Under the pieces are notes generated by a model. That model did no database searches, was not told the origin of the DNA, and saw nothing but the letters and a program-made list of their open reading frames with translations. DNA of 64,000 nt from a virus. The stretch lies in the IMG/VR virus record IMGVR_UViG_3300035701_000010, positions 33,657 through 97,656 of that record; one strand, written 5' to 3'. The position numbers and the translations under genes are program-made. Each line of letters opens with the position of its first letter. The first letter of the stretch is position 1. Shown here one piece after another: positions 7,794-60,900 of this stretch.

Positions 7794-9647
7794 TCATCCG
7801 CTCACCATTTTCATCAGCTGCTCTTCATTAATCATTTTAATTTTCAAGAACCTTGCTTTGGCGGCTTTTGACGAGATGCTATTTTGATCTGCAATCACTA
7901 GATAGTCTAGATTTCTAGAAACGCTCACAATTTTTCCGCCATTTTGTTCAACCAGTTTAATCAACTCTTCTCTTGGTCTCGAGGCGGCTCCAGTGAATTG
8001 AAAGGTTTTTCCTTTTAAGATGTTAGTCTTCTCTACTTCAAGAAATCTTAATCCTTTACCTTTGAGAAAGGTGTAAAGTTCGTTATAGTCTGGGATGTTG
8101 TCTATGAAAGCGGAAGCAACGCTTGGTCCTATTCCTTTAACGGCAATGAGTTTATTGAACATCTCATTGATTGGCATTGTGAACATTCTGCCGAATCCGT
8201 TGCGAGCTAAGGTGTCTACAATTATTTTAGCATTCTTGATGGCGATTCCAGGAATGCCAAAAGCGGCAAGAAGATTTTCTTCTGTGGTATTCAGAGTCTT
8301 CTTTCTTTCTTCTAAAATTTTATCTGCGGATATTTCTCCCAATCCAACAGCCTTTGCAATTTGTTCCTTAGTTAAATCATAGAAATCTTCAACTACTAGA
8401 ATATTAAGCTTTTCCAACGTTGGCGTTCGAATTCCTTCTGCTCCTAGAGTTCGGATAAAATACTCTACAAATGCGAGGGCTTGTCCTTTACAGGTCAATT
8501 GGGAGTTAGGGCATATTAAATCTACACCATCTTTCTTAAGAGTCTCTTGGCAGGATGGGCAATTGGTTGGTTGGTGAAGGACTTTGGCTTTTTTGACCAC
8601 GCCTGTGATATATGGAATGACATCGCCAGAACGAACAATACTGATCACCGCCCCCCTGTCAATCATTCGCTCTGCAAGCCATTGAGCATTGTGTCCGGTA
8701 GGGTGTTGAATTTCAACTCCTTGGGTTTCAATTGCATCCACATGGACGACAGGAACAACTCTTCCGGTGCGAGTAACATTCCATTCTATTTCTGTGACCT
8801 TTGTAGATATTGGAGCATCTGAAACTTTGAAGGCTACTTTGTTTTCAGGAATTTCAACATTCTCTCGTGGAGCATGGTCGGCCATAATGACCAATCCATC
8901 CATGTCATAAGTCAAATCGCCCTTGGTTTTAATTTTATTGACCCATTTTTCAATCAGCCGATCTGTTTGCGAGATTGTTTCTTTTAAGATTCTAAACCAA
9001 GGAGTGACTTTAAAGCCGAGGAGATTAATTTGGTTGATTCGATCAAATTGAGAGGGGATTTCTTGAGGCCATTCAATGAGTTCATGAAACCAAATAGAGA
9101 TTCGCTCCATGCCTTGAAGATCATCTCTATTCATGATTCCAGCAGCGGCATTTCTTTTTGTTTTATAGCCAACCGGAACAGTTCCGGTGATAATTGCTTC
9201 TCCTCGCATGGCCACTCTTCCAGATTCACGAATGCTCATGATGGGAGTTTTGGTGATGGCTTTGGCTTTCCATAAAAGGTCTTGCCCAATATGTCCATCC
9301 CCTCGGGTACAGAAGGTAGTTAACTTGCCCTTGTTCCATTCAGCGTAGATGGAAATACCATCCAGTTTGAAGGAAGCACAAAGGTCATCTTTTTGGTGGG
9401 CACGGAGCCACTTACCGGCGTCGGCTGGTCCAATTTTATTCAGGCTACCAAGAACATAGGGCAGATGAATTTTGGAGCGTTTTACGGGCGCACCTACTTT
9501 GGCAAGCAGTTGACTGTCTGGCTTCAGTTTCTTAAGCTTGTCTATCAATTGGTCGAACTCTTGGTCTGAAATTTCGGGCTGTTGGTTGTAATACAATTCT
9601 CTGTGATGGGTAATTCTTTCTTCTAGTTTGGCAATACGATCAACCAT
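7794..9647 (-). CDS. ligA: NAD-dependent DNA ligase
   Basis: YY..QPEISDQEFDQL, KLDG adenylation motif, RGE, RNAAAG, DGLVI, OB fold (VTRTGRVVP, RSGDVIP), Zn finger, HhH, C-terminal BRCT. Confidence 0.97.
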   Translation of the reverse strand: MVDRIAKLEERITHHRELYYNQQPEISDQEFDQLIDKLKKLKPDSQLLAKVGAPVKRSKIHLPYVLGSLNKIGPADAGKWLRAHQKDDLCASFKLDGISIYAEWNKGKLTTFCTRGDGHIGQDLLWKAKAITKTPIMSIRESGRVAMRGEAIITGTVPVGYKTKRNAAAGIMNRDDLQGMERISIWFHELIEWPQEIPSQFDRINQINLLGFKVTPWFRILKETISQTDRLIEKWVNKIKTKGDLTYDMDGLVIMADHAPRENVEIPENKVAFKVSDAPISTKVTEIEWNVTRTGRVVPVVHVDAIETQGVEIQHPTGHNAQWLAERMIDRGAVISIVRSGDVIPYITGVVKKAKVLHQPTNCPSCQETLKKDGVDLICPNSQLTCKGQALAFVEYFIRTLGAEGIRTPTLEKLNILVVEDFYDLTKEQIAKAVGLGEISADKILEERKKTLNTTEENLLAAFGIPGIAIKNAKIIVDTLARNGFGRMFTMPINEMFNKLIAVKGIGPSVASAFIDNIPDYNELYTFLKGKGLRFLEVEKTNILKGKTFQFTGAASRPREELIKLVEQNGGKIVSVSRNLDYLVIADQNSISSKAAKARFLKIKMINEEQLMKMVSG

Positions 9648-15592: not shown

Positions 15593-16848
15593 TGAACTCT
15601 CCTAATCTTCAAAGATTTGAGGAAGTTTGCTCATGAATTCATAGGCTTTCTCTGCCGCTTCGGTGTGGGTAAGATTTGGTTCTTTGTTCCTATAGGCGTT
15701 GCAGGTCTCTGCGACGAAGTCGACATAGCGGATTCTTTTGATTTTTTCGTCATCGGTTTTGACAAGAACTTGGGTGGCACATCTTCCAATAATGGATTTA
15801 ACGATGCTGGTATCTGTACTTGAAACATAGTCTAATTGTTCTACAAACCTTTTCTTCATGGTCATGACGGTTATAAGGTAAGCCTCTTTTTCAAGAGGAA
15901 CTTTGAGCAATCCTTTTTGTGTCTTGATTGATTCTGCATTCTTCATTTTCATGTCTCCTTTTTGCGCTTTCTGGAACTCTCCACCATTCTGAATCTTCAT
16001 CTCGAATCAAGATTCTTCCGCATTGATGGCACCACCAGTGGTCAATATACGAATCGTCATGATTTTGATGAATAAGATCCATTTCCTCATTCTTTCCGCA
16101 TTGGCATTCCATTATTCCTCCTTGGTGTTGAAACTCAAAAGGGTTTGTTCAGTCATTTCCATATCATCTACCTCTATTCCATCAATTGTTGAAATGAATC
16201 CGTAGTCCATCTCATTCACGCACTTGGTCAATTCTGTAACCGTTTTGGGTTCTTCATGTCTAAAACCGAGTTTGATTGTGACATAGACGGTTGATTTCAT
16301 GCTTCTTCTCCTTTCTTTATTTGTTGGTCAATCTCAAAAATCAGATCTCTTAAATTCTTCATCGCCTTTTTCACAAAAAATGGAAATTTACTCCAACCGG
16401 AGTGGCAACAAGCTTCCCATAAAAGCATAGTCATTAAAAAGTAAGATTTAAAGATAGGATCTTTTCGTATCATCTTATTTAACAAGAAAAGATGATACGT
16501 TTCTTCAGGTTCCAGTTCTATATCTGGCATGTTAGAACTGATAAGATTTTCTACTCCTTCATAAGCTTCAATCGCTTCAATCAGTTGTTGTTGTGTCATT
16601 CCCATTTTTCTTCTTTCTCCTTTTGGGGATAGATAGGTGTCTTATTTCCATGTTGAGCAAACTCAGTTTTTCTTTCAGCGCATCGGCTTTCGCTTGCATA
16701 ATTCTCATCTTCTTTTCAAATTCATTCACCTGTCGTACCGAAGCTTGAAGATCAATTTTCAACTTTCGCATTTGTTCTACCAATGCTCTAACTTTCAGCC
16801 ACCGCTCTTTTATATCTATAATCATAGGGGTGCCCTAAAACTAGGTAA

Positions 16849-16877
16849 ATGCTACCATAACGATTTGTTTGATGCCA
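16849..16877 (-). promoter_or_regulatory. Promoter TGGCAT-N17-TAGCAT
   Basis: Shares TTTTGCTGGCATCA...TCGYTATGGTA with the 18966 site. Confidence 0.6.
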
Positions 16878-18965
16878 GCAAAAACCATAGGCTTTCTGTG
16901 AAAGCTTTGAGTCTACAAGTTAACAAATCGCATAGGTTCTCTGTTTACCACTTCTAATTTTTCTCTAGTTCTAGATTCATTCAAGGTGGCAAGAGTGGCC
17001 GCACAGGTGGATAGGGCAACGGCATCGCGTCTAATATCGTCTGCACGCAGATACATCCTGATATTATTTTTCCCTTCCATATCTTTTCTCACTTCAGAAA
17101 CTCTTGCTTCTCTTACTTCAGAGAGATGTCTTGAAATACTTTCTATCAGAAGTCCGACAGCCATGTTTGCCGTGAAAATCATCGCTTCGAAATCTAACTT
17201 CGCAACATCGGCACATAAATCATTCTTTGTATTGTTCATTTTTTGTCCTCCTCTAATTCTTTTTTAGCCATTTCATGGAGTGTGGGTTGAAGAGCCGCCC
17301 CGATGTTATGAAGCTGCTCTATGGTCGGCGCAGGATGATCTATTAATTTTTCTAATCCTGCACTGTGAATACAAGGTCCGCAAATGTTAAATTGATTTGA
17401 GAGAAAGATGGTGTTGATAAAGAGAGGAATTTTTAGATCAGAATGTAAATTTTTAAAAAGTGTCTTGACAGTCTCCTCTCCAAACTGTTCTTTCACCACA
17501 TTCAAAATAAAGGTGAATATTGGTAAATCTTTTTCTGTCATGAACTTTTTGATCTTGGTATGAAATTCAGGATCAAAAAAGTGGGTGGGTTCGTCAATGA
17601 GGGAAAGTTTTTCCAGAGTGATTGCCATCTTGAGATAGAAGTCTCTTACATCTATTCCCTCTTTTTTGCAACAGAAACATTTAGGAGCATTGAAGACAAA
17701 TTCTTCCTTACGGCTTCTGTTCATCTTACGATCTTTTTTCTGCTCCGCTTTGATTTCTGGGGTGACTTTCTTTTGAATTTGTTCTTTTATGAACTTCTCA
17801 TTCAAAGCTGCTGCTTCAGGGTGAATTTTGCAGATGCGATCCTTTGGATTGATCGGAACTGTAGATCGTCGATTGAGTACATGACCACAAAGTGAACAGG
17901 TTACGGTTTTTGGTCTAAACAATCCTTTCTTTTCCATCTCGTCCTCCTTTTATTATATAGGATCAAACCCATAAACTTCTTTTACAAGGTATCTCATTTC
18001 TTGAATAAGGAAATATTTCCGGGCTACATCAGACGGAACTTTTTTGGGATAATCTCCTATCTGGATCATACTTCCTATCCTCCAGCATGGACAAATGGTT
18101 GTGATATGAAATTGATGAAAGAATTGCGTTTCGTCATAACCTGATAGGAAGTTGACTAGGTTAGAAAGTCCTAGGCATGTGGCTTTGCATAATCTATCTC
18201 TATCCCAAGATGTAATTAGCTGATGCCATTTTTGAAATGGACATGTAGAAAGGAATTCAGAATCTTTTTTAGTAGCAACAAACCATTCTCTGGCTAGTTG
18301 ATCTCTTTCTTTAAGAACACTGTCTATAGCCTCTCGTATTTCTATATATTTCACTTCCATCTTATCCCTCCTCATCAGTTTAGAAGAATAGCGGCCATGA
18401 TCCAGAATCCTAACCAGAACCATGCTTGTCTTCTTGCCATAAGTCACCTCCTTTTAAGAGATTATAGTTTATTTCTCAGTCCTTTCGATGTCTATGTAAA
18501 ATCTTTTTTTGTCATCCGATGTATAAGCACTCAAGATTACCCATTTAATAACAGGATTAGAAAATATTTCAATTTCTGCGTCCATCGGAACCTCTGCCAA
18601 ATCTTGAAGTAACTCTTTTTTGTTCATCTTTACTCCTTTTATTCGTCATCTTTGTCTTCTGGCTGAACAGATTTGGGACTGTCAAATCGTAGGTTGGCTG
18701 TGAATCCTATTGCAGATTCACGTCTCAGAACGGCTCTTACAAAAGCCAGATTAGTACGAAAAATTTCCACGCTGCCATCCTTATTGGTCAATCCAGGACG
18801 TCCCAAATACCTTTCCACATCCCCTTGTCGTCTAGCGCAATGAATACACTGGTTGAAAAATCCGATCTTTTGTTTCATTTTTTCATCAGGATCAAACTCT
18901 TCATCGCAATCCCTACACTTCAAATGCATCATCACCCCCCTGTCATAAAAGGTTAGCTATGGGTA

Positions 18966-18994: not shown

Positions 18995-21900
18995 GCAAAA
19001 TACTACCCTATTCCCTACCAGCCATACCACTCAAAAGGAAAAGCTTTTTTCCTGAGTTCACTATCTTTCTTCCTATCTCTCTTCCTAAAGGCTTCAACAT
19101 CTACTTTTTCTAGGTTAGAATGAGTTTCGAAATAACAATCTGCTGCGAGCTCAAAAACATCAGATCGTTTGATACTTTTAGACATGTCTGGTCTTCCCAT
19201 TTCGTCAGATAGAATCTCATCGCCAATGGCTTGCCAGACTGCTCTCAAGCCGCGAATCCATCGCTCTTCTTGCGTAATCCCTTTCATTTCAAAGCTCTTT
19301 TTAATTTTTGCTTTCATTTTTCACCTCCTATCTATTTCTTACTGCTTTGATAATCCATGCCCCGTCTTTGAGAGTAATGTCTTGTTCGGAAAGACCCCAA
19401 ATCGCTTGCCTTTTTTCATAAACTCCAAGAAGATGAGTTTTGACTCCTTCCGTTCCATGAACTAGAATTTCACTTTTCATGGAAGCTCTCTTAAGTTTCT
19501 TGATCAATTCTTCTGCCGTCATTTTTCACCTCGCTTTTCTGCTTTAAGAATTTCTTCCCAAACATCTTCTCCAAGCCCTTCTGCTGAAGAATAGTTACCA
19601 TCGGTGTAATAGTTGTGTTCTGGATCTGCATCGAGATCTTCTATATCAAAATCTATCTTGTGTCCGATGCTCCAGAAGCAGATAATCTCACCATCATCAT
19701 TAGTCAGGGTAAGTTTCACTTTGCTTATCCTCCTCTAATTCTAGAACACAAAAGATGGTTTGATGACAAAATTGACATTCTTTTTCTATCACGGTTAATG
19801 GTTCTGTTGACTTATCCAAGATAAAGATATTGGATTTTGAGCAATGAGGGCAACTAGTGACGAAAGTTATGCCACTCGTTTCAGTAGATTGAACAGTTTG
19901 TTTTTCAGGAATCTTCATTTCATACCTCCAATTTTTTAAATCCCATTGTGGTGAGAAAAGCTTCTCCTAACGTTTCTTGAAATGAAGAGACCAACAGCCT
20001 GTAGAATGCTGGAGTATGGCTTGCTTCCATTTGCCAGATGGTACCGTCGTCTTCTGCTTCAGGATTCAAATGAATCTCCATTCCCTGAGCATCGGCTATG
20101 AGAAAATAGTTTTTGCCTTCACCAATTAAGGGATCAGAGTCTGGTTCTTTAAACCTTTCTGCTCCAGCAAAGGCATACCAATCCGTTTTATCAAATTCTT
20201 TAAGATCCATCATAGTCCTCCTTTCAGATTATCATCATCTAAGGCATTTCTTCTTCAAATTGCTCTTCTTTAAAAAGGATTGCTTCGCAGCCACAATAGA
20301 AATATTTTTGCTTTTTGGTCAATATAGAACCATCGATACATTGATACTCGTCATCAAAAACTTCCATACAGACATTGTTTGGATAAAACTTTCCACAGTT
20401 CCAACACCAGAATCCAGATCCGCCACAGAGTTGTTTTTGATGTTTGTGGATAAATTCAGTGTTCGCCTTAGCACAGTCCGGACCCGTCTTTGTACACTCG
20501 CAAAAGTAATTCAGATCTTTACTTCCTGGACCGCAATGCGATCTTATCCACCATTCTTTTGGATCTTTGATTTGTTTTTCAATATACCAATTAACGATAA
20601 GACCTTGGTCATTTTTAAAATTTCCCTTTCTCATTACTTCCTCCCTCTTTCAATGTTCATGATCTCTGCCATCGCCATAAGATGGGCTACTAATCCCCTT
20701 CCTTTTGGAGGGGGCGTTGAACGATGCTCTGTTTATCTATGCCTGTTCTTTTCACGTTTCAATGCAGAAGCTTTCCGTTCTTCAAACGTTCCTCGACGCT
20801 TCGCTTGTCCCATTTAAAATGGTCACCTCCTTTTAATATTCTACATCCACGTTTGCCGCCCCATATTCCTGGCATCGCTTGCATTTTACACGATGTTTTG
20901 ATTCAAAAGCTTCTCCAATTTCATCGGTGGGTGCGCCCATCGCTTGGGTCATTGGATCGTTTAGTAACGTATCCCAGAATTTTCTCACTTCTGGACACCC
21001 TGGGTCTACTGGAGTTATCCATCTTGCCATCTTAGTCTCCTTTTCTGTTTTTCTTGTAGTCTCTGGCCATTTCTTGGCACATCTTTCTTTCTCGTTTAAG
21101 GAATTCCTTTTCTTTCTTTTGGTATTCTTTGAAGCTGGCTTTCTGTTCCTTGGTCCTCACCAATCCATGCTTTTCATAGCATTTTGGATCGCCATACGAA
21201 GAACACTTGGGACATTCTTGACAGATGCAGTCATCTGTAAATTTCCCACAGACTTCGCATGGACGGTCTGGCGGATCAATATCATTCATGCTCACTCCTG
21301 GGGGTAAACTCCATCCAAAAATTCCCATAGGTCACCTCCTTTCTTATTTTTCTTCTGTTAACTCTCGTGTGAGTTGCCTTCTTATATCATCATCAACGGA
21401 TTGGCCCTCCGGCACTTCGTCATCTTTTTCGTCTGGACTTTCCGCAGGGTAGAAAGATTTCCATAGATACCCTTCCCATTTGATGTTACACTTTTCACAT
21501 ACCATTTCTACAGAGATGGTATGAGCAGCAGGGAAGAACTCTTCTTCTTCAACGCACTCTGTTCCACAATAAGGACACAACATAGGTCAACTCCTTTCTT
21601 TATTTTCTCTCTTTTCGCCAGCGTTCAATGTATTCCTTTATTTCTTTTTTGAACGATTTTCTATAGTCCTCCTCTAAATTGGGTTTATCTCCAAAATTCC
21701 AAATCTCTATAAGGTCTTCAGCAAATGGATTAGTTTCCATTTCCGCTGCATAGAGATCAAAGACAGGAAAGAGGATGATTTGGCCAGACAATTCTGTTAC
21801 GAAATCGAAATCCTCTATTCCTTTCTCGTATCCAGTAACGTATCTTGGTACTTCAATTCCTACGGTTTTCAGGTAGTCAATAATCCAATCAAAATAGATA

Positions 21901-23000
21901 TCCTGGCAAGAAATATCGCTATCGATCCCCACCTTGTTCAGCCAACCTTTTCTGGTGTGATGTTTTTCCAATTCGCGGACTTTGACTTTAAGAAAATCAA
22001 AGATTTTGTCCTGGTCCTGAGTAATCTTTTTGATCACAGTTTTTACATCCATATCTCAACTCCTTTTTTTATGTTTCCATGGATCACACTTGTCATCACA
22101 GATGACCCTATAGAATTCAAGAAGCCCAAACCCGATGTTTTCATTAACGACTTCAGAGATGAGCGGACTTTTGCAAGAACAGAACCAGATACGGTTGAAG
22201 TGGGCAGGGGCTAGAGTGTCACTGACCATGCAATGTTCTTTCCCGAAAACGATATGGTGAGCCACACGGTTGTCATCATCAAAGAATCCTTGGTCCAAAT
22301 CTACAGCGAAGTATCGCCAATGCTTCTTGCATTTTTCACAAATGACATCCGATTCAGGATAGAACTCACCATCTCTCAAATATGAACGATCAAGCTTCCA
22401 TCTGGGCATTATTGTCTCCTATCCTTCTTTATGATTAAAGTCCTTCTTTTTCAATCCGTTTGAGTTCATCAATAATTTTTGAATATTTCTTGGGGTTTTT
22501 GCTTGACAGAATTTTGATGATATAACGGTTGATAAAGCTGGTTTCATCATGCGTGTTGCCTTCATACTCTACAAGCCTTGTATATTCACAGTAATTGTCC
22601 CAAGGGTCATAAATTCCATCATAAAAGATTTCTGACTTCAGCCCGTCGAAGTCGGCTCGCGCAAAGGTATCTCCATAGTTGATGATGGCTTTGTTGATGA
22701 ACGGTCTATACTTCTTGGTCAGATTCATCACGACCTGAAGTTGCTCTGATCGTTTCCTAACGTTAATCAGCATGATTGTCTCCTTTTAATACTCGCCGCC
22801 GTTTTCCCTCTTGTCAGCACATGAATTGCAATAATCGTACTCCGGTTTGATGATCACTGTTCTACCACATCCAGAACAGACTTTCTTCACTGATTTCAAG
22901 TGTGTTTTTCGGTAGAATTTCACCATTTCAGGATCATCCATGTTTTCCCACACGCCATAATTGTCGTCTATGAATACTCTGCTCATGGTAGTCTCCTAAG

Positions 23001-23027
23001 AAAAGGGCGGACCTTGCGATCCGCCCC
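23001..23027 (-). terminator. Intrinsic terminator
   Basis: GGGCGGA-TCGCAAGG-TCCGCCC-TTTT. Confidence 0.7.
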
Positions 23028-24310
23028 CGATTCTATGGTAGATCTTGTTTACTTCTCGGTCAGCACCACCGTCACTTCATCAGGGATTTCCATGCCCTTT
23101 TTGAAGTACAGATTGCCGACCACTCCCTGCTCCATGTCCTCGATGATGTAGGGGTGATAGCGTTTGCTGTCCACGCCCTTGTACTTCATGTTGACGGTCA
23201 GGGTGCTCTTGCCTTTCTTCGCCGGTGTTTTCTCAGCCATTTCTCTTCTCCTTTATCATTGTTTGTTTCAACATAACTCCACCTTAAGACTCTTCTTCAC
23301 GCTCTCTGTTGGTTTCTTCCTATCGGGTTACTGGTTCGTCACCTCCTTTCTAGCCCTGATACTTCGGGTCAGGGTTTGGAATTTCAGTCGCGCTTAAGTA
23401 ATAGATCTTCTTCAATTCCTCCTTTGTCTCACAAGAATAGAATGTAATGGGGACCCACTCGTCATCCAAATTCGGCTGAATATGACTAGTCGAAAAGAAG
23501 AAACGTTCTGTTTCTTCGGAACCACCATCCGCAAAAACAATCAATCTCATCTTACTTCTCCTTTCTATGCAAGGTTCACCTTGGTGTGACACCCTGCTCC
23601 TTTCTTTCTCCAAATGAGTTTGCTCGCTACCCATTCCAAAAGGCGATAGTAGAGTTTGTACCGCCCCCTGAAAGGTCCGTATGTTTGACACATGAGCTCT
23701 GTAAGGTCCAACAGAGCCATCTCCATACTCTCTTCGAGACTCTGTTGGTCGTCAGACCAGAGTGGCTTATTGGGATCAGGATCTTTCCATGCATCTGTTT
23801 CCCACGGGTCTTTGGTTTTCAAAAATTGGGCGATGGCTTCATCCCGCTCTTCCTCGCTGATGAGCCCGCTTAGACAGGCCCAATCCGCGTCAATCCGTTC
23901 TCCACCTGGATCCAATCCAATTCTTCCCATCTTTATCCTCCTCTTAAGGGTGTATTCTTTTCCTGCTCTTTAGCATCGCAAAGAGATTCTCCTCCTCTCC
24001 AAAGCTAATGTATCCCATTTCTGCCATCATCTTGAGTTGACTCTCCAGGTCGTAGACCGATCCCTCCGTCAAGCATTGTCTAACCGCTTTCTGTTCTCTC
24101 ACCCTCTTTTTGAGGTCTTCAAGAATCTCATGCTTCGCTCCTTCCGATAGACTCAGAATTCTTCCCATGTGTCTCCTCCTCTCTTTCCAGTTCTCTTCGA
24201 ACAAATCTTCTTCTCTTCATTTCCCCTTACTTCCCCTTGACTGTGATGTGATTAACCTCCTTGGGTGACCATAAGGGTGAAGGGGTAGGGGTAAAGTGAA
24301 GTAGATAAGA

Positions 24311-27924: not shown

Positions 27925-28617
27925 TTAGTTACCGGCAACTGCCTCAACCGCTGCCAGAATAGCAGGGGTAGCGGTTGCAACGACCTTAGCCTTTTTCTTG
28001 GCCTTGGGTTTGGCCGTTTGCTTGGCCAACTGCATTTTGATTGCAGCGAGCTCATTCTCTACTCTCTTACGGCGGGCCTCCAAGTCCTCCGGTTGAGCCT
28101 TGCCAGCCTGAGCTCTCGGTGCAAAGCCAAGCTGTTTCGCCCATGCGGTCGAAGCCACCTTGTCCTTCAAGGCTTTTCTAAACGCCTTGTCCAGATTGGG
28201 GTCGTCATATTTCAGGATGGTGACATACACCCAACGTCCAGGAGCCTGAGCACCAAAGCCGAGTTCCGATTGCGGAAGGTAGGCAACGATGTCGTTCGAT
28301 CTCACTGCCACCTTGATCCCAACTCCGGTAAACGCTTGAAGTGCGCCAAGCCCAGACTTGGAATCGGCCTTGGCAGAAACTCTGCGTGGAGGAGCCATCT
28401 TCAACTCCTTGCAGATGTCAATCAGGATCTGCTCTGCCCTTTGGCGACCAGTCAACGGAGTCACATCCTTCTTGGCCTTGGGCTTGGGAGTTCCCTTGGC
28501 AATCGCTCTGGTTTTCGCGATCAGTTCCGGATTGCTCTTTTTCGTGGCTTCGTAGTCTGCGGTCATCTTCGTAGCCATTTCCTCAGCCGTCATTTCCTTG
28601 CCATTAAGATCTACCAT
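27925..28617 (-). CDS. Basic early protein, paralog A
   Basis: Clear similarity to 29764-30432 (SKSG.GA.QA, KVAVR..DIV.Y.PQ, W.Y, DD..L.KAFRKALKD). Confidence 0.8.
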   Translation of the reverse strand: MVDLNGKEMTAEEMATKMTADYEATKKSNPELIAKTRAIAKGTPKPKAKKDVTPLTGRQRAEQILIDICKELKMAPPRRVSAKADSKSGLGALQAFTGVGIKVAVRSNDIVAYLPQSELGFGAQAPGRWVYVTILKYDDPNLDKAFRKALKDKVASTAWAKQLGFAPRAQAGKAQPEDLEARRKRVENELAAIKMQLAKQTAKPKAKKKAKVVATATPAILAAVEAVAGN

Positions 28618-28731
28618 AGAATCCTCCGAGAATCTTTGTAACGAACGTTAGTAAGACCGGCCAGTGTATCTCCCAACCCTCTGAACAAGACAGAGTGGGC
28701 CTTAGCCGTGGTTAGCGTTCAGCGCCTAGAA

Positions 28732-29094
28732 CTAGCATGGTCTAGCTCCCTTGCGCTGCATGTCTTTAAGATGGTTTTGAAGATAGTTAGTCAGATACTC
28801 TTCTTGAGTTTTCAGATCAAACCTTCTAGGGTTACGGGTTTTATTGAAGTTAAAGTATTTTCTTGAATGGTCTTCATGCTGACAATGGCCGTGGTTGATG
28901 GCTCCAAGGCATGGACAATCCAAGAAGACTTCGGCTTCAACTTTACGAACTCTAACTAGATAGCGATGCTTCTTTACATCCTCATCTCTAAAGACAAGAA
29001 TATAACCAGGCTTCTCCAAGTAGTAGAGTTCATACCAATCGACTCTTGTTCTGGTTCTTGGTATGAAGTACCTAGCCTTTTGCAAATGGTTCAC
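28732..29094 (-). CDS. SWIM-type zinc-finger protein
   Basis: Y.V...LDCPC.......CQH motif. Confidence 0.6.
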   Translation of the reverse strand: MNHLQKARYFIPRTRTRVDWYELYYLEKPGYILVFRDEDVKKHRYLVRVRKVEAEVFLDCPCLGAINHGHCQHEDHSRKYFNFNKTRNPRRFDLKTQEEYLTNYLQNHLKDMQRKGARPC

Positions 29095-31301: not shown

Positions 31302-34127
31302 GCCTTTCTCCTTAGCGGAGAGCCGAAGCCCTCCGCTCGGTTAGTTAAGCGGTGGTCAGATCCTTTCTTGGGTCATGCCTTCGCATGGTGGTTGTCGAAG
31401 TTCTAACTCTGACTTGATACCGCTTGTCTTCGTACCCAGGAAAGAGGTTTTGATCGATCACTACGTTGTTTCGTTGAAGGGTTGCTCTGGTGACATAGCC
31501 TGGATGGTGTTTATCTCCAGCCTTTACCTTTCTACTCTGGTCTACAATGTATTGCCTTAATCCTTCCATGATTGCCTCCTATCAGGCTTGGTTAAAAGTT
31601 AGACCTTGTTGATATGCACAAAGATATAGCTTCCGCAAGAGCAATATCCGACAGTCTTGCTGAAGAAGTGCCCAAAGTCTTTATCATCTTCAGGATTCAC
31701 GCCATGTTTCTTGCGATATCTTCGCGCCGCTTTCGTTTCATTAATAGGGCTATTGCATTTGTAACATCGAATAACCCCATCTCTGAATTCACTTTTCACT
31801 GCCATTGTTGTCACCTCCTTTCTAAGATAGGGATGTGCAGTCCCTTCTGTTAAGGGTTGCTAGAACTTACCTTTCTTCAGATCTTCCAAGTGTCCTTGAA
31901 AAGCCCATCGTCCATAGGCGATGTTAAGATAGGGCAATCCAAGAAGTCGAGGCTGAATGATTTTGCCCTGCTTAATGAAACGAAGAAGTATTTCTTTCGC
32001 CATTTCATAGCAGCTAATCCATTCAAGCTTCTTGTACTGATTGAGGAGATGGTCTACATCGTCAAGAGGCCAACAAGTCCCTGCAACGATGCATTTGACA
32101 TCTTGCTCATCAATCAACCCCTTAGCGATGTCCATGATGCATCCGGACAAACTAAGACCAATAAACCTTGCATTATCCATGCTAGTTCCTTTCTAGAACA
32201 GGGATGTGCAGTCCCTAGGTTAAAGGTTAGTCAATGAATTGAATGCTTGACAAGTCCAACAGATTGGCTTTGGCGAAATGCCGTAGATTCTTTACATTGC
32301 TACGATACTTGGCTAATGCTTCTCTTCTAGCTGTGATCCTCTTGATCATTTTCAGCTCAGCCTTTAGCCTGCTCTTAGCCATGCCATAATCGGGCTTCAT
32401 CTCAATCAAGTCCATCGTTGTCACCTCCTTTCCTTGTGGGTTTATTTCTGCTTATGCCGACTCGTTAGAGCAAGCATAAGCAGAAGGGCTAACATCAGCC
32501 TCCTTGAGCGGACATTAGCCCTTCCTAGTTATGCTAGAAGCAGACTACTTTTTGGCTTTCGCCTTCTGCTTCTGCTGTCCTACCCTAACCTTGCCATTGA
32601 CAACGGTTGCCGTTGCCATCCGGTTGGTTTGTGAAGCACATCCCCCAACCATTCGCTGTTTCGCAAATGGAGCCGCCCAGATAGAGCAACCAAGCCCATC
32701 AATGCGACCACATCCTGTACATGCCGACACAATAGCCAATCTAAAAAGTTCCATAGTCATCTCCTATTGGGTTAAGGTTATGAAGATAAGTTAACGATAT
32801 GAAGTAGACCGTTGTTTCTGTTGACAAGGACAACGGTCAAACCTCCGACATCCCTAAGATGTCAGTATGGAGGACGGATGCTAAAAGCTTTCGCTTTCGC
32901 ATATGGTCTTATGAAGCAATCGCACTTCGTAAGACCACCTTCGCCCTTGGGCATAATCGTGGTCTCCATAGCTGATTGATATAATCAGCCATGAAGACTT
33001 ACCGACCATGACCATGAAGCCAAGGTCATCGTCCTCGTGATCCTGCGTTCTCTCCAACGAGAACCAGAACCATTCTGTGTTGGCGCAGGTCCATTTGAAT
33101 GGTTTGCACCAACTCCAGAGCTTCCATACGAGGAAGTCTATCATGTAGTTCACCTCCTTTTTAAGGGTAGATTTAAAACTTAACCCTTAATCGAAAGCCC
33201 TGTTTCCAGGGCTTTCTGTTAAGGGTTACTCACCACGGGTACCATTGTCTGTTTCCGTGTTTCCATTCCCAGAAACAGTCATAGGCTCCGTAATACTCCA
33301 TGTTAATAACTTCTAATCTAAACCAATACTCTCTCATCTTTGTCACCTCCTTCCTGTCATGTAGTTTGCCATTTACCAACTATATATGAATTGTCTATAG
33401 TCTGACAAGCAACTATAGGCAAATTTTTTTTGTCCCCCTCAATGAAGAGGGGGACAAATTTAAAGGTTAACGGCTTCCAGGTGAGCAGTCCTGCACCATC
33501 GTCCTAAGTTGGTCTTGAGTAAGACCTTCATAGTCCGGGTCATGCAGGTCGGACAGTAGCTTCTTAGTATCGCACTTCGAAGCTACTATGCCACATGACA
33601 CGCACTTCTTTTCAGAAGCACGTCCATTAGGCATGTCCCAATGGCCCCACGGAATGCATCCACTGACTACATAGTGGGTGCAAAGGCAATCCCAATTGCA
33701 CGGATCACGATAGCGCATCCGGCACTTGGCGTTGATTGCACAATCAAAGATTGGCAGATCAGCGTGTTTCTTTGCCATATTGGTATCCTCCTTTCAGGCA
33801 AGTGAGTGTGAACAGTGACATCTCAGTAAGTGCCTATCCTTACTGAACTGTTCACACGACGGGTTATGAAGATAGGTTAATTAGTTCCCAAAGAAGATGG
33901 GAACGAGTATGGTCAAGTTCAAGAACCATACCACGATACAGATGCCTCCAACCACTATGTAGATCCATTCTCTCATCGTTGTCACCTCCTTTCCTAGAGT
34001 AAAAAGGTTTGATCTAACTATCAGTTCACAGACTATTTAGACTGCCTGCAAAGCATGGGCAGAGTACAGGCATAGTTATATGGCTATCATTTGCTTATTG
34101 TATTTGTGGTGTGGTTATGCAATTAAA

Positions 34128-34748
34128 CTACCATGTTACTGTTGCGTATTGTAGTTTAGCAATTGCATACTTATTGCAATATGCATGTATTTGTTTACCC
34201 CATAGTTTGTATACATACAGCCCAACCATAAACGTTTGCCTTATAGCACAACCGTATAGTATTGGTTGCACCATGCACACCATTGGTATATATGCAACAA
34301 GGTTAATAAGCTTTAGCTTTTGTGCTAACCTTTGGTATTTTGCACCCATTGCAAACAACGTGTATGTTACTGCGTATAGCATACTGTTAAAGCAGTTAAT
34401 TGTGCTTGGTATGTTATGCCATAGTTGGTTAGTGTATATGTTAACTGCTAATGTTAATGCTATGCCAATACTAAGCGCAATATATGGCAGCTTAGTGCTT
34501 TTAATTGGCTTGTTGCCCCATTGCCTATTGCCATACCAATTTAAAAACACAAAATATACTGTTATTGCAATGTTGCCATACCATGCAAACCACCAGCCAA
34601 ATAATAACCAGTAAATATTAATTGCCCACCCAATTTTAAAAGCATGTTTTACAACAGTTGGGCTTTTAGCCAAAAATGCAAAGTTTTGGCAGCATGTAAG
34701 CCCTGTGTATAGCCAATTGCAAATAATAATAATTACATTAATAAGCAT
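34128..34748 (-). CDS. Asp/Glu-free polytopic membrane protein, PnuC-like (nicotinamide riboside/vitamin transporter fold)
   Basis: 206 aa, about 7 hydrophobic segments; YG.IAI.VYF.FLNWYG..QW resembles the PnuC pattern; SD is AAAGGGGT. Confidence 0.55.
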   Translation of the reverse strand: MLINVIIIICNWLYTGLTCCQNFAFLAKSPTVVKHAFKIGWAINIYWLLFGWWFAWYGNIAITVYFVFLNWYGNRQWGNKPIKSTKLPYIALSIGIALTLAVNIYTNQLWHNIPSTINCFNSMLYAVTYTLFAMGAKYQRLAQKLKLINLVAYIPMVCMVQPILYGCAIRQTFMVGLYVYKLWGKQIHAYCNKYAIAKLQYATVTW

Positions 34749-34840
34749 TTAATTACCCCTTTATTATTTAATTGTTATATTGTTAAGTTAACAACCGCAC
34801 GTTATTAAGTTATGTTGTTAGTTAATTATTGTTGTTGCAA

Positions 34841-34915
34841 TTATACATACATGCAAATAACTGCAACGCCAAAAACGCCTAACCACAATACATACCAAAA
34901 ATGTTTGCTTACCAT
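34841..34915 (-). CDS. 24-aa single-TM peptide MVSKHFWYVLWLGVFGVAVICMYV
   Basis: Manual translation; preceded by G-run SD AAGGGGGGT. Confidence 0.5.
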   Translation of the reverse strand: MVSKHFWYVLWLGVFGVAVICMYV

Positions 34916-36452
34916 TGCGTTACCCCCCTTACTATGTAATTGTTAATGGCACTAATGCCCTACCCTATGCTATTGTTACACAACGCAACAATAATATATG
35001 TAGGTCATTTTCTGAATCCTCGAGATTTTTCTGGTCAATCTGGCCAGATCCTGAGTAAATCGGATAACCATCGGATAGCCCTAAAGGGGACGATCGCCAA
35101 ACTCTGAAGACCCTGAGTAAATCGATTAGACCCAAAGGAGGCATAGGGTTAGGACGGGCTGACCAAGGCTAGACGATGAAATCGACCAAGGGGGAGGCGA
35201 TAAGGCGTATAAGGGAGGTAAGGGGTTGAAGGAATCGGAAACGCAAAGGGGGAAAATCAAAAAGGGAACCCGAGAGGGTCACGAAGTTCCCCTGGGTCCC
35301 CAATAGGACGAGGGATAGAAATAGGCGGGAAAAATTTATCGAGGAGTTTTTCGGAAAAACACTGGATCAGTTTTCAATTCTTGAGCGGCTTCCTTCAATT
35401 GCTTCCTAAAACAGGCTTCGGGGGTTTTTCCATCTTTTGGAATGTTCCAGAAAGAAGGATAGCCCGTCTTTTCCCAAACCACCCAATCGATCAAGGCAGG
35501 GGTGGCTTTGGGAAAATATTCTCTTACGAGGCTTTGAATGGTGGGGCGTTTCTTTTTAGGACGCATCAGAAACTCCTTTTTGAATGGCTTCTTTGTCTAA
35601 GGTTCCCATTTCTCCACGAATAATCTTAAGACTGCCACAGTGTCCACAGAAATCTTCCCCTTTATTTCTTAAATCAAGACGAAGCTGTCCACACTGTTGA
35701 CAGAAGTATTCAGTGAGTTTCAATTCAACGAGTGGCTTCAATTCATTCATCACGCAACTCCTTTTTGGTTTAAAGTTTCTCGGCTAAAACCCATAGAAAC
35801 ATGAAGAAAAGGGCAATGACGATAAGGAGGGTGAGGTAGCAGGCGATTTCAGCTTCAATTGCAAACCCTCCAGTTTTTCTTGATTCTATTTTAATGATTT
35901 CAGCCCGCTTATTGTTATCTTTTTTGATAGGAATCATTTGGTCACCCAATTTGAAAAAAGGCACCAAGCCTTTTTCTTAGTCATGCAGTTCTTCCTCCAG
36001 CACAAAGGCATGGTCAGATTCGAATTGGTAGCCAAGAAAGAAGAGGTAGCCGTCGATCGTCTTTTCTTCAATGCCTTCAGGATGGGCCACATGCTCTTCC
36101 ATAAAGGTTTTGACATGAGCAATGGCGTTTTCAGGATCTTTGAAGAGTTTGATTTCTGGATCGGTATGTCGATCGTTACAATAAGCAATATAGACTTTCA
36201 TAGAAGACTCCTTTATTGGAGATAAATCGGGTTCATTTTTAGGAACTGGAGGAGGAAACGCAGAACCCCCTCCCCCTCCTCCCATCATCGTCACCATAAC
36301 AGCGGTGGTGCCTTCTCGAATCGTAATGGATTCACTAAAAGGCCGAATCTTTTTGGAAGCCCTCTTTTCCCTTATCTTGTCTCTAGCCCAAGAATAGACA
36401 AAGGCCGTAAGAAACGAAATGACTGGAACGAGCCATAAAAGATTTTGGTCCA

Positions 36453-54111: not shown

Positions 54112-54942
54112 ATGCAATACTCGATTATGGCGAGACTTGATCCTCGCAGCCGCTTGGAGTATGTCTGCGAAAGTGAAAGAGAATCTGAAGGCAAGACGAT
54201 TTTCTATCTTAAGCCTTTGTCGATTGCTGAGTATTTGAAATGTGAGTCGGTTGGAAGAGTACAGGCGGTTAAGGTTGGAACTTTCACTTTAAGAGCTCTT
54301 CAGTACGGATTGATCGGATGGGATAACTTCGCTGACGAAGAAGGCGGGGTTATCCCATTTGATTTGAAAAACATAAGCTATCTCCACCCTAACATTCAAA
54401 TTGAATTGGCTGAGGAGATTGTAAGAATAGCTGAACTTGAAGGAGAAATTGTAGAAGAATTGAAGTTAGTGGCTCGGTGGGGTGAATGGTTGGATAAAAA
54501 TGAAAACAGAAAACATCAATGGGAATGTGAATTTTGTTTAGAAAAGAAACTCTTTAAAAATAGAAATTGTGATGGAACCCTTCCAAACAAATGCAGCAAA
54601 TGTTCAAAAGAAACACTTGAAGATGAGTGTCCGATATGTGGCGTTAAAACCATTCCACAATTTAAATTTCGGTTCAGTTCTACGATTACAGATTGGGTGG
54701 CTCGATGTCCGGTTGCCATGTTAACGCCAAGAGCAATTCAGCTAACGAATATTGTTAATTTTACCGATAATGCCAAAGCCCTTCCGTTTCATTGTGGAGC
54801 ATTCGAACAAACCTATTTCTTTTATTTGATTCGTATGGTGGTATTGTCCGAACAGAATGCAATTCTTAAGAAAGAATTAGATCAGAAACCTGACTTTAAC
54901 CACATACAAAAAGAGAGCAAACGACATGGCCAAAGTAAATAA
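54112..54942 (+). CDS. Tail assembly chaperone paralog with Cys-rich C-terminal extension (GT-like)
   Basis: EYVCE...TIF..K.L...LRALQYGLIGWDNF.DE.G paralogous to the upstream gene. Confidence 0.7.
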   Translation: MQYSIMARLDPRSRLEYVCESERESEGKTIFYLKPLSIAEYLKCESVGRVQAVKVGTFTLRALQYGLIGWDNFADEEGGVIPFDLKNISYLHPNIQIELAEEIVRIAELEGEIVEELKLVARWGEWLDKNENRKHQWECEFCLEKKLFKNRNCDGTLPNKCSKCSKETLEDECPICGVKTIPQFKFRFSSTITDWVARCPVAMLTPRAIQLTNIVNFTDNAKALPFHCGAFEQTYFFYLIRMVVLSEQNAILKKELDQKPDFNHIQKESKRHGQSK

Positions 54943-57900
54943 AGAAATCAATTTTGTCATTAATGTGGCGTATGCGGCGCAAAAGCAAATGAAAAGCTTT
55001 ACGGATGACATTGACCGCATTAGTTTAGCTGTTCAACAAATTGACAAAATTGGTGGTAGAACAGGAGCGGATAATATCGCATTGGCTCAAGATGCTCTAA
55101 GTGGGTTTGTTAAAGAACTGAGCGAGTTAACAACGAAAAACTTTTATCAGGGTTTTGAAAATCTGGCTACTTCTCTTAGAGATATTAGACTAGCAACGCA
55201 ATCGGCTTCCGGTTCGATGCAAGAATTGCATGGCATGTTTTCAATTATGGGTAAAATTGGTGATCTATTTGAGGGAAAGATTGGGAGTATTTTTCGGGCG
55301 ACGGTTGCATTGAGAGAGTTTGCAAAGCAAGTAAGGCTAATAGGTCGTATTGAAGATGATAAATTAGAAGCCATCACATTACTTTTTGATCGAATTGCGC
55401 TTGCTTTAGGTAAATTGGGTTCTGGTAGTGTTCTTCCGCAAATTATGACAACCATTGGCAGTCAAGCGACTCAATTGAGTTCAGTCGCTGATGCTATTGA
55501 AAGGATCGCCAAGGCATTAACTCTTGAGGGAGTAAGACAAACGGCAGAGTCTATATCTAGAATTGGTCCTAATTTTCCTAAAGGGGTTCTTAGTGGAGCG
55601 CCGGTTGCTGGTGGGGGTGCTGGAACACCTGTCGTTGGGATAGGTCCTGCAGCGCAGGCCCCTGTCACAACTGGCGGAGGAATGGGAGAAACTGGAACAT
55701 TTGCGTATGATAAATATGCCGACTGGGGGGCAGCTTCTCCAGCAGGAAGTAAGGTTCTAGATAGTATCTTCAGTGGGCTACAGAAAGAGTTTGGAGGTCC
55801 AGGAGGCGCTAGTACCTTTGATGAAGATATTATTGATACGGTCATAAGTTCTATGAGAGGCCTTAATGCCAGGATAACAGATAAAAGAAAGGAAATCCTT
55901 GAACAAGGGTTGGTTGATAATACGGCAGTTATGGAAAGATTGAATTCGACTAAATTTAAAGGAGGAGTGGGAGCAACCGAAGCGACGACTATTGCCAAAT
56001 TAACAAGTGGAGCAGAATGGTCTGAAGATCTTGATCTTCCAAAAGAAATGAAAGCATTGTCTTTTGCTCGTGGGACTGCAATTCATTCTGGAATGGAGCA
56101 TGTGATTAAAAACGTAATTACGGCTAAAAATTCTATGGGCGAATTTTTACAGAAAAATTTATATATGAGTCCTGAATTTGCGAAGGGAGTAGAACAGGAA
56201 GCTATTTTTGCAGCTAATTCATTCAAAGTTCTAGTTGGGGAAGCTATTAAGAGATCAGAAACCGAAGGAACACCTATAACGATGACTAAGGAGTTGAGCG
56301 AACAAGTTAAGATTCAAGCCAACACGATTCAGAAAGCTCTTATGAACATGTTTTCCCCTAAGATGATGGAAAAAATGAAAAATGATATATCTGTATTAGC
56401 TGAAAGTAGGGGGAAGACATTGACAGAAGCCTTGCAAGCTATGACCATAGATGTAGAAAAGACGCTACAGCCACTTGTTCTTTTGGATCCTGGTATGGCA
56501 ATCCCTAAGGGAGCATCTCCAGAACAGAAAAAGTTGGTTGAAGATATGGTTGCTTTGTTAAAAGTCAAATATAAAGATGCAAACAGCAAACTTCAAAAAC
56601 TTTTTGATGAATGGAATCAAATGGGGCTTATTGTTTTTTCACAAGCTGATCTTGTGGCTCATTTTGGTGAAGACATTGGCAAAATAATTTGGGATCTTAA
56701 AACAGGAACCAAAAAAACTAAAGAAAGCGCTCAATATCAAAAAGTGCAGGGATCGATTTACCAATTGTCTGAAGCTCAGGGAACTAAGGGCGGCGTGGGT
56801 AACGTTCAATTTGAAACTATGAACCCCTTAGCTAGAGATGAAACGAATTTAATGCGAAAAGAAGGTCTTAGTGAAGAAGTTGTAAAAATGACAGAAGTCC
56901 AAGAATTAAATCAAAAGCTAATAGAAGTAGATAGACAACGGTTGACAGCAATTGACATGATGAATGTTGCACAAGAAAAATACATCAGAAAGGAAGAAGA
57001 AAATCTTAAATTAACTCAGGATCTTAAAAATACATCAAAATTTTTAGCCGAAACAGTTTATCAAAGAGATCTTCCGCAGTTGAGTGAGCCTCCTTCACCT
57101 CCAGCAAAAGGAGGAGGTGGGGGTGGGGCAGGAGGCGGAGGAGAAGGAAAAGGCAGTTTTGGTTTTTTTGGTCCTGTTGGGAATCTTGTTGAAAGAAGTG
57201 TAAAAGGATTAAATTTGGGCGGCGCACAAGGAGAGTTGGATGCGCTAACCATTGCGGTGAGTAAATATGACCAAGCCGTGACCGCTGCTTACTTGAAACA
57301 GAAAATGTTTAGCGAATCACTTGATCTTTCTATAGTTAGGTTTACAGAATATGGAAAGATCATGTCTTCTGCAGCTGACGTTTTTTCTAAATTTGTAAGT
57401 TATCAAAAAGTTGGAACCACTCAAGAAGAATTAGCAACTAATGAACTAACGAGAGGGTTCACGCTCCGTGCGGCAGCTTATGAAAAATTGATCAACGTGA
57501 TGAGGCAGTATGATACTAAAATGGAACAGAGTCGCAGCCATGAAATTGATTTGGCTGATTTAAGGCAGACGATTACAAGGCAATTAGAAAAGATTCGACC
57601 TGAAACAGCGGAGGCTTTAAAGCCGGTTCCGAAGGAACAGTTTGAAAAGCGTATCTTTTCTAAAGAATTTCAGACAGCAAAAAGTACGGGGACTATAGAT
57701 GCGGGAAGTACAGAAACAGAAACAAGTATGATTAAGAATGCTGAAGCGTATCAAGCTCAAAGAAAGGCAATTAAAGATCTTACAAGAGCTCATGCGGATT
57801 TTTCTACGGAATTAGTGAACGCAATTAATAAGCAGGGAACAGTAAGAGAAGATCTTAAAAGAACGATTGATGTTATTGCTTCTGGTGATGCAGGGTTGGC

Positions 57901-60900
57901 GGCATCTCGGGTTGGGATTACAACCACGGCGCAGGCGATTGAATGGCTTACGGAGGCATTGTCTAGAAATCAATTAAGACAGATGGATTCTATTGGTACT
58001 ATGGATAGAGTTAAGGGTGTTACAGAAAGAATGAATGCAACGATAACCGCTCTAGGAGTTAATGTTAAGGACCGTCAGTTACAATGGGGAAAGTTGTCAG
58101 AAAGTTTACAAGTTTATAACAATGTTCTTAAGACTGGGCAAACAGAACTGAACATGTATGGGGCCGGGATGACCGCCCATCTAAATAAACTTGTGGAAGT
58201 GACCCTTGCAATTAAAAAGAATGAAGAAGCTTTGGCGCTTAATGAAAAAGCGATGGCGGCTAACAATACGGCCACGACAAAAGATGTGAAATTAGAAACA
58301 GATCTTATAGCAGTAAATAAAGCGCTCAATGTGGAACTGACAAAGCAAGCTGCTCAAGTTGCTGAACTTGTGGCTGGGAGAGAAAAGATTAGCAAGGCTT
58401 CTAATGAAATGGCCAAGACAGTGAGTAGCGTTCGTGAAGGGCTAGGAGAACTTTCAAAAACAGAAAAGATGAAAATTGGGGATACGGCTGAAGCCTATCG
58501 TGGTTTTTTTAGAACAACGCTTCAAGGCTTCGCCAATATGATTCGTTCGCAAATTGCGTGGATTGCCGGTTACGCTTTGATGTTTGGAACAATGAGGGCG
58601 TTTAAAGAATCTCTTATGTCTGTGGTTACGATTCAACACGAATTTGCTCGAGCAATGAGAACGGCTCGGGATGATGCCCTGTCTACTTCTCAAATTTTGA
58701 CTATGTTTAAGACGGAAGGTGTTAGCGCAATGATTCAGTTTGGAGAATCCTCTAAGAAGGTTGGTGAAACTCTCTATCAACTGGGAAGTGCAGGGTTATC
58801 AGCTACTGAATCCGTAGCGGCTTTGAATACAACGATGAGAATGCTTGTGGCAACGGAGGAAGATGCTCAAGAAGGAGTGAAATTGGTGGCTTCGGTTTAC
58901 AATAACTTTAAGGATACGCTTAAAGGGTCAACCACTCAGGCTGAAAAATTTCAATGGATTAACGACATTATGGTGAATACGTTTGACCGTCACCAAGTAG
59001 AAATGAATGAATTGAGAGAAGGATATAAATATCTTTTAGCGATGGGAAAATTGACCAACCTTACTTTTACAGATATGTCTGGAATTTTGGCGGTATTGAA
59101 TGACAATTTGATTAAAGCGGGAGTGGCTGGTCGTTCGATGCAAAGTGTATTGTCCGAAATTGCACAGCAACCCTTAAAATTTGCGGAAATGTTTAATATT
59201 CCAATAAACCCTGAAGCGCCGTTAGATGTTCTTAAAATTCTTGAAGGTGTTAACGCACAGATGAATAATCAAAAACTTTCTGTTGACGAATTGTCTAGAG
59301 TATGGGAAACAATGGGGTTAAGAGGAGCAAGAACTTTTGTGATTTTGGCTCAGAACGTTGATAGATTAAAAGAGGTAATCGAACGGCTGGGCAAAACTTC
59401 GGTTGGAGCAAACGAAAGAATGTCAGACATTATGCTACAGAAGCCAGATGTGGCATTTAGGCGGTTAGGAGAGGCAGTAACCGCTCTTGTCAGAACGGGA
59501 TTTGAACCGCTAGTGACTGTTGGATATGGAGTGGCTTCAGTTCTTGGAGATATAGGAATGAAGGTTGCTGGAACACAAAGCGGTATTGTTTCGCTTAGCG
59601 GTTCAGTGTTGGGATGGGCCACAACCTTTATGGTATTAAAATCGGCAGTTGTTGGATTTGGATTGGTTAGAGCTCATTATTTCACTAAACTTTCTTCAGA
59701 TAAAGAATTAATAGATCAGATCAAATTCTCTGTGTGGAACTTTGCAAAGGCGTGGGTCTGGGCTGCTGCGGTGATTGGAGTTTCTATCAAAGATATAGTA
59801 GTTCAAGTTGGATTATTAATTAAAGCAATGAATTTTTCTGTAATTTTGCCTATGCTGAAGCAATTGAATTTTACTTCCGCAACTGCTTCTCTTACTCTTT
59901 TCATAACTTCTTTGAAAGCATTAAATTTTGCTGCGCTTACAGCTTCGTTAAAAAATGTGGTGACACAGATTAGTGCCATTGGAGTGGCGCTACTTGGAAG
60001 TGCTACCCTTTGGTGGTTATTGATTGCTGCAACGGCGGTATGGGGTGCCTATAAGATTTGGGATTCAATTCGTATGACCAATGAGAAATATATTAACTTG
60101 ACAGGAGCAATGGTTGAAAATAATAGAGCTGCTCTTGAAGAAATAGAATCACTAAAGGAGAGAATAGATAAATATGCCGAGATTGGTGAGTCGATGAAGG
60201 GTTTGCGCGAAAGTATGAATGTTCGCCTTAAATTTAAATTGAGTGCGGAAGTTAATAAGCTAGAAGAGGATTTTAAGAAAATACATGAGCCAGCGGCTAA
60301 ATTTACAGATGCGATAAAAGAGATGGCTGACAGTTATATCGATAACGTTGAGAATATGGCAGAAAGAACTGAAAAGGCAACGACTTCTATTTATGAGAAT
60401 ATGGCACAAGCGACCAAGTGGCTCGGTGGGGTTAATGTAAACGCTTTTGATTCAGAAAAGGACAAGAAGGCGATTGGACAATTTGGGCAGGATGTCTTTA
60501 AACAAGAGGATATTATAAGGAAACAGATTAAGCAATTGGAAGGTTTAAAGAAAGCAGGAGAAGGAGTTTTTAGTTCTGAAACGGTTGAAAAAATTGATAA
60601 GAAAATTTTACAATATACTGAAGATGTAGATAAGCTAACTGGAGCGACGCAAAGAGGACTTAATGCTATTGGTCAAGCCGTTTTTGAAGTTAAAAGAGCT
60701 TTTGATCCTAAAGAAACGTGGCATCAGGGAGCATTTTTAGAAGAAGTAACTAAGAAGAAAATAATTTCGGAACAAAGTGAATATATCCATTTATTGCACG
60801 AACAGGAGGAGTTAGATAAGAGAATTGTCAAAATGGCAAAACTGCGGGGTGAAGTTTCTGTTAATGAATTTAAAGACAAGGTGGCAACCCTTATACAAAG

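Follow-up and report, generated by a model that had tools for sequence, protein, structure and literature searches.

We analysed a 64,000-nucleotide stretch of a virus from the IMG/VR database (record IMGVR_UViG_3300035701_000010, positions 33,657 to 97,656; hereafter the window), and in particular a short island from which the dinucleotides GA and TC are absent and which carries two genes, one for a 24-residue peptide and one for a 206-residue membrane protein with a predicted Pnu-family fold. The window is the final 64 kb of a contig of 97,656 bp, whose completeness is estimated at about 70%.

An island free of GA and TC

On the plus strand, neither GA nor TC occurs between window positions 34088 and 35005 (918 bp), hence neither is present on either strand, and this island is unique in the 97.6-kb contig. 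The next longest GA/TC-free gap measures 46 bp if the window alone is considered and 48 bp over the entire contig, which is the size predicted by the overall GA/TC density. Outside the island both dinucleotides are slightly over-represented (odds of 1.14 for GA and 1.17 for TC), and the A+T content is higher in the island than on either side of it. It extends from about 90 nt 5' of the first start codon to 40 nt 3' of the last stop codon of a two-gene unit encoded on the minus strand, as are all neighbouring genes.

A second phage, represented by a 35.7-kb IMG/VR contig (L002), harbors its own GA/TC-free island of 1158 bp, in which the counterpart of the large gene again lies downstream of a 24-residue peptide gene. 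The two phages are syntenic, with 62% identity between their large terminases, 50% between their 5'-3' exonucleases (FEN) and 34% between their Pnu-fold proteins. The original prediction that the region had been purged of GA is thus supported both by the zero counts of GA and TC on the two strands and by the separate island of a syntenic phage. The ban is old and selected: the two phages that share it have diverged to just 62% identity in their large terminases. Being symmetric, total, local and old, it argues for a reader of double-stranded DNA and against mutation pressure.

Searches with the cassette returned no DNA or protein match in cultured phages and no match in prokaryote genomes; IMG/VR contained one other locus only (that of L002), and the JGI metagenomes contained, apart from this contig itself, just two out-of-frame matches due to chance (L004 and L005). 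Just beyond the upstream edge of both islands lie repeats centred on CTCGAG, with one copy at window 35019-35024 and three copies at L002:7580-7625, which may constitute a protein binding site. A TC-rich tract upstream of the island was dropped as a feature, since it falls at the 96th percentile here and is ordinary in L002.

Coding consequences and gene status

The large gene (P0001; window 34128-34748, minus strand) encodes a protein with no Asp and no Glu, in which Met and Trp are never followed by a residue whose codon starts with A; the codon table of the open reading frame (ORF) confirms both of these earlier observations. Serine is encoded by AGY only, Phe by TTT only and Arg by AGG only, and the stop codon is TAG. 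All these traits are automatic consequences of the missing dinucleotide and do not count as separate observations: without GA, GAN codons cannot occur and neither Asp nor Glu can be encoded, nor can a codon ending in G (Met, Trp) precede one starting with A, while the absence of TC removes the TCN codons of Ser, the TTC codon of Phe and the ATC codon of Ile. The resulting protein has a net charge of about +16.

Because TGA is impossible in GA/TC-free DNA, long ORFs are easier to obtain there. In simulations of such DNA, a length of 206 residues was reached in none of 5000 first-order sequences and in 0.02% of second-order ones (p<=2e-4). This length beyond chance, the family of 12 proteins described below and the syntenic second phage together sustain the earlier proposal of a functional gene purged of GA. 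Both ORFs are real genes. That the larger is a Pnu-fold gene adapted to the ban is, in our judgement, very probable, and its annotation as a seven-helix membrane protein draws on ORF length, eleven relatives, an AlphaFold2 (AF2) model, a structural match to the PDB entry 4QTN and a search of BFVD. A 167-residue ORF on the opposite strand (window 34111-34614, plus strand) is long for chance (p ~0.001), yet has no counterpart of at least 60 residues opposite the L002 gene, and was judged to be a by-product rather than a gene.

Ribosome binding sites made of G runs

The ban also reaches the Shine-Dalgarno (SD) sites. The peptide gene is preceded by AAGGGGGGT (window 34922-34930, minus strand), 6 nt before its ATG at 34915, and the large gene by AAAGGGGT (window 34755-34762, minus strand), 6 nt before its ATG at 34748. 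With a canonical anti-SD sequence, the 16S tail of the host being assumed to be canonical, the computed pairing energies are -11.8 and -8.4 kcal/mol, respectively, versus -17.3 kcal/mol for the site of a flanking gene. Among the 142 SD-bearing ORF starts of the contig, AGGAG is found in 86 and GGAGG in 62, and a G run in just 3-4. Both L002 genes likewise have a G run, followed by ATTAAA and then by ATG, with AAAGGGGGT at the spacing of AAAGGGGT. The claim that G-run sites stand in for AGGAGG-type sites at both island genes hence extends to the second phage: the ban reshaped the ribosome sites, GGAGG being respelled as G runs with pairing kept through G-U wobble. A third GGGGT of the island (window 34197-34201, minus strand) falls within the coding sequence of the Pnu-fold protein, and an out-of-frame ATG 10 nt after it begins a frame of 16 codons. 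This GGGGT encodes the conserved LWGK, and its position is probably due to chance.

The peptide gene and the non-coding parts

The first gene of the unit (window 34841-34915, minus strand) encodes a single-helix membrane peptide, MVSKHFWYVLWLGVFGVAVICMYV. Seven synonymous and three non-synonymous codon differences separate it from the L002 copy, so that 21 of the 24 residues are identical (88%, versus 34% for the large protein), and this mostly synonymous divergence points to selection on the peptide itself.

Within the intergenic spacer (window 34749-34840, minus strand), a stretch of about 70 nt shares about 85% of its nucleotides with the spacer of L002 (L002:7861-7960). No convincing RNA fold shared with L002 emerged for this stretch and a search of the island against Rfam gave no match; the stretch may be a promoter or an operator. 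Upstream of the peptide gene, the motif AACAATARCATAGGGTA, which occurs once in the window, is followed by a short hairpin (window 34948-34977, minus strand; counterpart at L002:7670-7700). The stem sequence of this hairpin differs between the two phages with pairing kept, as read by eye from two sequences.

A protein family and the reach of the constraint in it

Word-indexed and exhaustive profile searches identified eleven relatives of P0001, of 192-214 residues and 27-82% identity, giving a family of 12 members. Twenty residues are invariant in all 12, namely N11, N44, Y46, G51, W56, T63, Y65, F66, N70, G73, W77, Y125, T130, L131, N149, Y153, P162, L164, C167 and Q171. L002 is the sole relative read as DNA, and the GA/TC status of P0002-P0009 and P0130-P0132 was taken from protein signatures only: GA/TC-free coding leaves no Asp or Glu, no Met or Trp followed by Ile, Met, Thr, Asn, Lys or Ser ([MW][IMTNKS]) and no Phe followed by Pro, His or Gln (F[PHQ]).

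Seven members have no acidic residue and none of the forbidden junctions, against pooled expectations of 37.7 for [MW][IMTNKS] and 5.8 for F[PHQ]. Two members have one Glu each. The clade formed by P0009, P0130 and P0131 (support 92/93) displays 1-4 acidic residues and 1-5 forbidden junctions per member, and the ban is hence relaxed in it. Wherever an acidic residue occurs in this clade, the aligned position in the strict members is taken by Asn, Lys, Ser or Gly, and at three columns of the family Asp or Glu exchanges with Asn or Lys, a pattern that fits exchanges between GAY and AAY and between GAR and AAR codons.

The original prediction had gone further, reading PSTINCFNS in P0001 as the P..D...T of PnuC with acidic residues replaced by Asn. 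Substitution of this type stands within the family, at the three columns just mentioned; its mapping onto PnuC found no support, and we dropped the residue-level comparison as the global and C-terminal alignments are unreliable. Relative to canonical PnuC (about 5% Asp plus Glu), the acid-free state is derived; the tree of the family is unrooted and leaves the direction of change within it unset.

Fold and kinship with the Pnu family

The AF2 model of P0001, predicted from 9 sequences, has seven helices, with a predicted local distance difference test (pLDDT) score of 84.5 and a predicted template modelling (pTM) score of 0.80. In a Foldseek search of the PDB, PnuC (4QTN) occupies ranks 1-2 (probability 0.87-0.90, E-values of 0.6-1.0). 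VIA-align, which is independent of Foldseek, aligned 166 residues to 4QTN with a Z score of 12.1, the sole chain with Z>=8 among 48,161; helical bundles can reach such scores, and the informative value is the margin over the second rank, at 7.9. In BFVD, nicotinamide mononucleotide transporters of phages fill four of the six top rows, and the protein in a fifth row has a NadR-type AAA domain. Among language-model neighbours in the ESM Atlas, the first three are PF04973 clusters (0.83), which we regard as a lead only.

Sequence comparisons point the same way at lower strength. PF04973 matched three relatives below its cut-off (E-values of 5.5e-5, 0.0065 and 0.079), PHROG 1880 ('PnuC-like') matched four of the nine members compared, and a profile search of PDB sequences gave no match. 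With an E-value of 0.002, an hhalign comparison with enterobacterial PnuC covered helices 2-3 as far as the YG...W with which helix 3 ends; in this alignment of 14% probability, the invariant W77 falls on W88 of E. coli PnuC, the gate Trp found where helix 3 reaches the cytoplasm. The Lys and Arg residues of P0001 are clustered on alternate loops and at the C-terminus, and the topology would be N-out/C-in, as in the Pnu core.

A closer kinship is opposed by several results. P0001 itself has no Pfam match at E<=10, and no member attains the 27.3-bit gathering cut-off of PF04973, the best scores being 23.6 (P0009, E 5.5e-5), 16.9 (P0007) and 13.4 (P0004). The Foldseek E-values exceed 0.05 in both the PDB and BFVD, and the hhalign probability is just 14%, obtained with a low-diversity PnuC profile. 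The ligand-binding motif of Pnu helix 6, WxxW(x)3D/N (PMC5749112), was found by regular expression in 0 of the 12 family members versus 120 of 120 enterobacterial PnuC sequences. The corresponding helix of the family contains the invariant N149 and has the two Trp of the motif replaced, its register relative to PnuC being tentative.

The likeness to PnuC advanced in the original prediction thus stands at the level of the fold (4QTN, BFVD) and weakly at that of the sequence (PF04973, PHROG 1880), and fails at the ligand-binding motif and the Pfam cut-off. As judged from the agreement of independent lines, the large protein is predicted to have the PnuC fold and to represent a divergent, distant branch of the Pnu family. 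Since the ligand-binding motif is missing, a substrate is not assignable and the protein is not filed as PnuC; it is a divergent Pnu-fold protein and not a shown nicotinamide riboside importer.

Other genes of the contig

Three loci situated before the window (contig G000:C1) encode proteins that together look like a base hypermodification set, as far as domain matches indicate: a thymidylate-synthase-family protein of 401 residues with a C-terminal extension (16246-17451; PF00303, E 1e-18), a TET-associated glycosyltransferase (TAGT) of 268 residues beside a class I methyltransferase (21835-23562; PF20691, E 1.5e-18), and a member of the uracil-DNA-glycosylase superfamily (28182-28736), about 5.5 kb further on.

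Inside the window, an NAD-dependent DNA ligase of 617 residues (7794-9647, minus strand) displays adenylation, OB, HhH and BRCT domains; it is a motive for a supply of NAD+ and not evidence of such a supply. The contig ends within an open frame that lies downstream of the tail genes (54926-64000, plus strand) and exceeds 3025 residues.

Discussion

Our best explanation of the locus, which we hold with a probability of roughly 55%, is that of a conserved two-gene membrane cassette kept as plain DNA in a hypermodified genome. The thymines (or cytosines) of the genome would be hypermodified in the TC context by the pathway of the phage itself, with its thymidylate-synthase-family enzyme and TET-associated glycosyltransferase, and the GA/TC ban would keep the two-gene unit unmodified. 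The Pnu-fold protein would facilitate the passage of a small polar solute, and the 24-residue peptide may be its partner or its neighbour in the membrane. Two published precedents exist: the phage thymine dioxygenase 5mYOX97 prefers NTC (PMC13229309) and the hypermodified thymines of phages M6, ViI and PhiW-14 are located at TG/TC steps (PMC6449724). A unit without TC on either strand would, under such a rule, stay plain DNA. Exemption from modification as the cause of the ban is a tentative proposal, with odds somewhat below even. More speculative still is the generalization that phages with context-specific hypermodification keep single gene units plain, the absence of modification serving as an address that is read during infection.

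Several observations pull the other way. A thymidylate-synthase-family enzyme points to a pre-replicative route that replaces the base everywhere, in which case only a later glycosylation could be context-specific. A Tet/JBP dioxygenase was sought and the contig gave no Tet_JBP match, and the fragment of L002 does not cover the modification genes. The plain-DNA reading also offers no reason why these membrane genes in particular should be kept plain. As for the facilitator, the domains of a NadR-type kinase/adenylyltransferase, which would provide metabolic trapping (PF13521, PF01467), are unmatched in the 97.6-kb contig (about 70% of the genome); a host kinase could serve this purpose. Two variants of the modification route were discarded, namely 7-deazaguanine at GA, as TGT/DpdA and QueC are absent from the contig, and a post-replicative thymine dioxygenase, for want of Tet_JBP.

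Among other causes, the ban might shield the cassette from an outside, TC-directed enzyme that the host or a competitor produces; a nuclease, a DNA deaminase and a DNA ADP-ribosyltransferase would be examples. A ban that is total on both strands fits an enzyme for which a single site is harmful. However, an attack at TC on the other 97 kb, where TC and GA are slightly enriched, would still kill the phage, and shielding 1% of the genome pays little unless the rest is modified, which leads back to plain DNA in a modified genome. We therefore consider an outside enzyme unlikely.

A somewhat less likely alternative concerns the function of the cassette rather than the ban: the large protein would be a true nicotinamide riboside importer that feeds the rebuilding of NAD+ against NAD+-depleting defences, as in the since published NARP3 pathway. 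Such an importer, expressed first and serving counter-defence, had been suggested as a possibility in the original prediction. The Pnu fold and the remote similarity to PF04973 and PHROG 1880 are compatible with this role, the pairing of PnuC with NadR in phages has been proven to act in counter-defence (PMC13464706), and the phage encodes an NAD-dependent DNA ligase and hence needs NAD+. Against import of this substrate stand the loss of WxxW(x)3D/N in all 12 members, the lack of AAA_28 or CTP_transf_like domains of NadR type in 97.6 kb, a neighbouring gene that encodes a 24-residue peptide instead of NadR, and the range of Pnu substrates, to which thiamine, riboflavin and unknown compounds also belong (PMC5749112). 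A divergent facilitator kept as plain DNA remains our preferred account.

That the ban acts on RNA, a transcript without GA and UC escaping an endoribonuclease, is improbable. The island does correspond to about one transcription unit in both phages; this explanation nevertheless needs two separate bans that happen to be mutual reverse complements, and the L002 island extends about 110 nt beyond a terminator-like hairpin. No RNase specific for GA or UC is known. The ban is better understood as one on double-stranded DNA. Finally, the idea that the ORFs are not genes and are open merely because TGA cannot occur on either strand of such DNA, as the 167-residue antisense ORF might also suggest, can be set aside in view of a length beyond simulation, a 12-member family with 20 invariant residues, a confident seven-helix model, SD sites at 6 nt in both phages, mostly synonymous differences in the peptide gene and an antisense ORF that is not kept in L002.

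If the plain-DNA reading is true, the cassette provides a sharply bounded natural test object for the relation between context hypermodification and gene expression, with one plain unit in a marked genome, and selection on a dinucleotide would be strong enough to respell ribosome binding sites. It would also amount to a natural protein-design experiment, in which a transporter fold has long been kept without Asp, Glu and several dipeptides and for which a relaxed sister clade is available for comparison; a functioning seven-helix Pnu-fold membrane protein could then be built and maintained over long evolution with zero acidic residues. The Pnu-fold protein and the highly conserved 24-residue peptide are candidates for a new phage membrane function. 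In our literature search, neither gene units devoid of a dinucleotide nor Pnu-fold proteins devoid of acidic residues were described in any paper.

Comparison with known systems

Among known systems, the large protein comes closest to the Pnu family (PnuC, PnuT and PnuX; PF04973; 4QTN). Shared traits include a predicted seven-helix core of about 200 residues in the PnuC fold, in which helix 4 connects two bundles of three helices, with 4QTN as the best and sole strong structural match (Z 12.1), a predicted N-out/C-in topology with Lys and Arg on alternate loops, a YG...W end of helix 3 that aligns with the gate Trp of PnuC, and invariant Asn residues in helices 2 and 6. In contrast with this family, the cassette protein scores below the Pfam cut-off, is devoid of WxxW(x)3D/N, is accompanied by no kinase match in the 97.6-kb contig, and contains zero Asp and Glu versus about 5% in enterobacterial PnuC.

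NARP3, a published phage counter-defence pathway that combines a PnuC-type transporter with a NadR-like enzyme (PMC13464706), resembles the cassette in that two adjoining phage genes form a unit and one of them encodes a membrane protein with the Pnu fold. The partner differs, since here it is a 24-residue membrane peptide and not a NadR-like enzyme, and the contig has no NadR domain. Enterobacteriaceae are the hosts of the known NARP3 carriers, and there is no report of NARP3 being GA/TC-free.

With context-specific thymine modification, as in 5mYOX97 and in phages M6, ViI and PhiW-14, the resemblance would lie in a TC dinucleotide acted on in both strands by a phage enzyme, and in the thymidylate-synthase-family and TET-associated glycosyltransferase genes of the present phage. 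The parts consulted of the two sources (PMC13229309, PMC6449724) make no mention of modification-free gene units.

The avoidance of restriction sites and other short motifs in phage genomes is likewise the removal of a short DNA word by selection. Here, however, the word has two letters, its removal is total and confined to one unit of 0.9-1.2 kb, the cost is borne by protein composition and ribosome sites, and elsewhere in the genome the very word that the cassette avoids is in slight excess.

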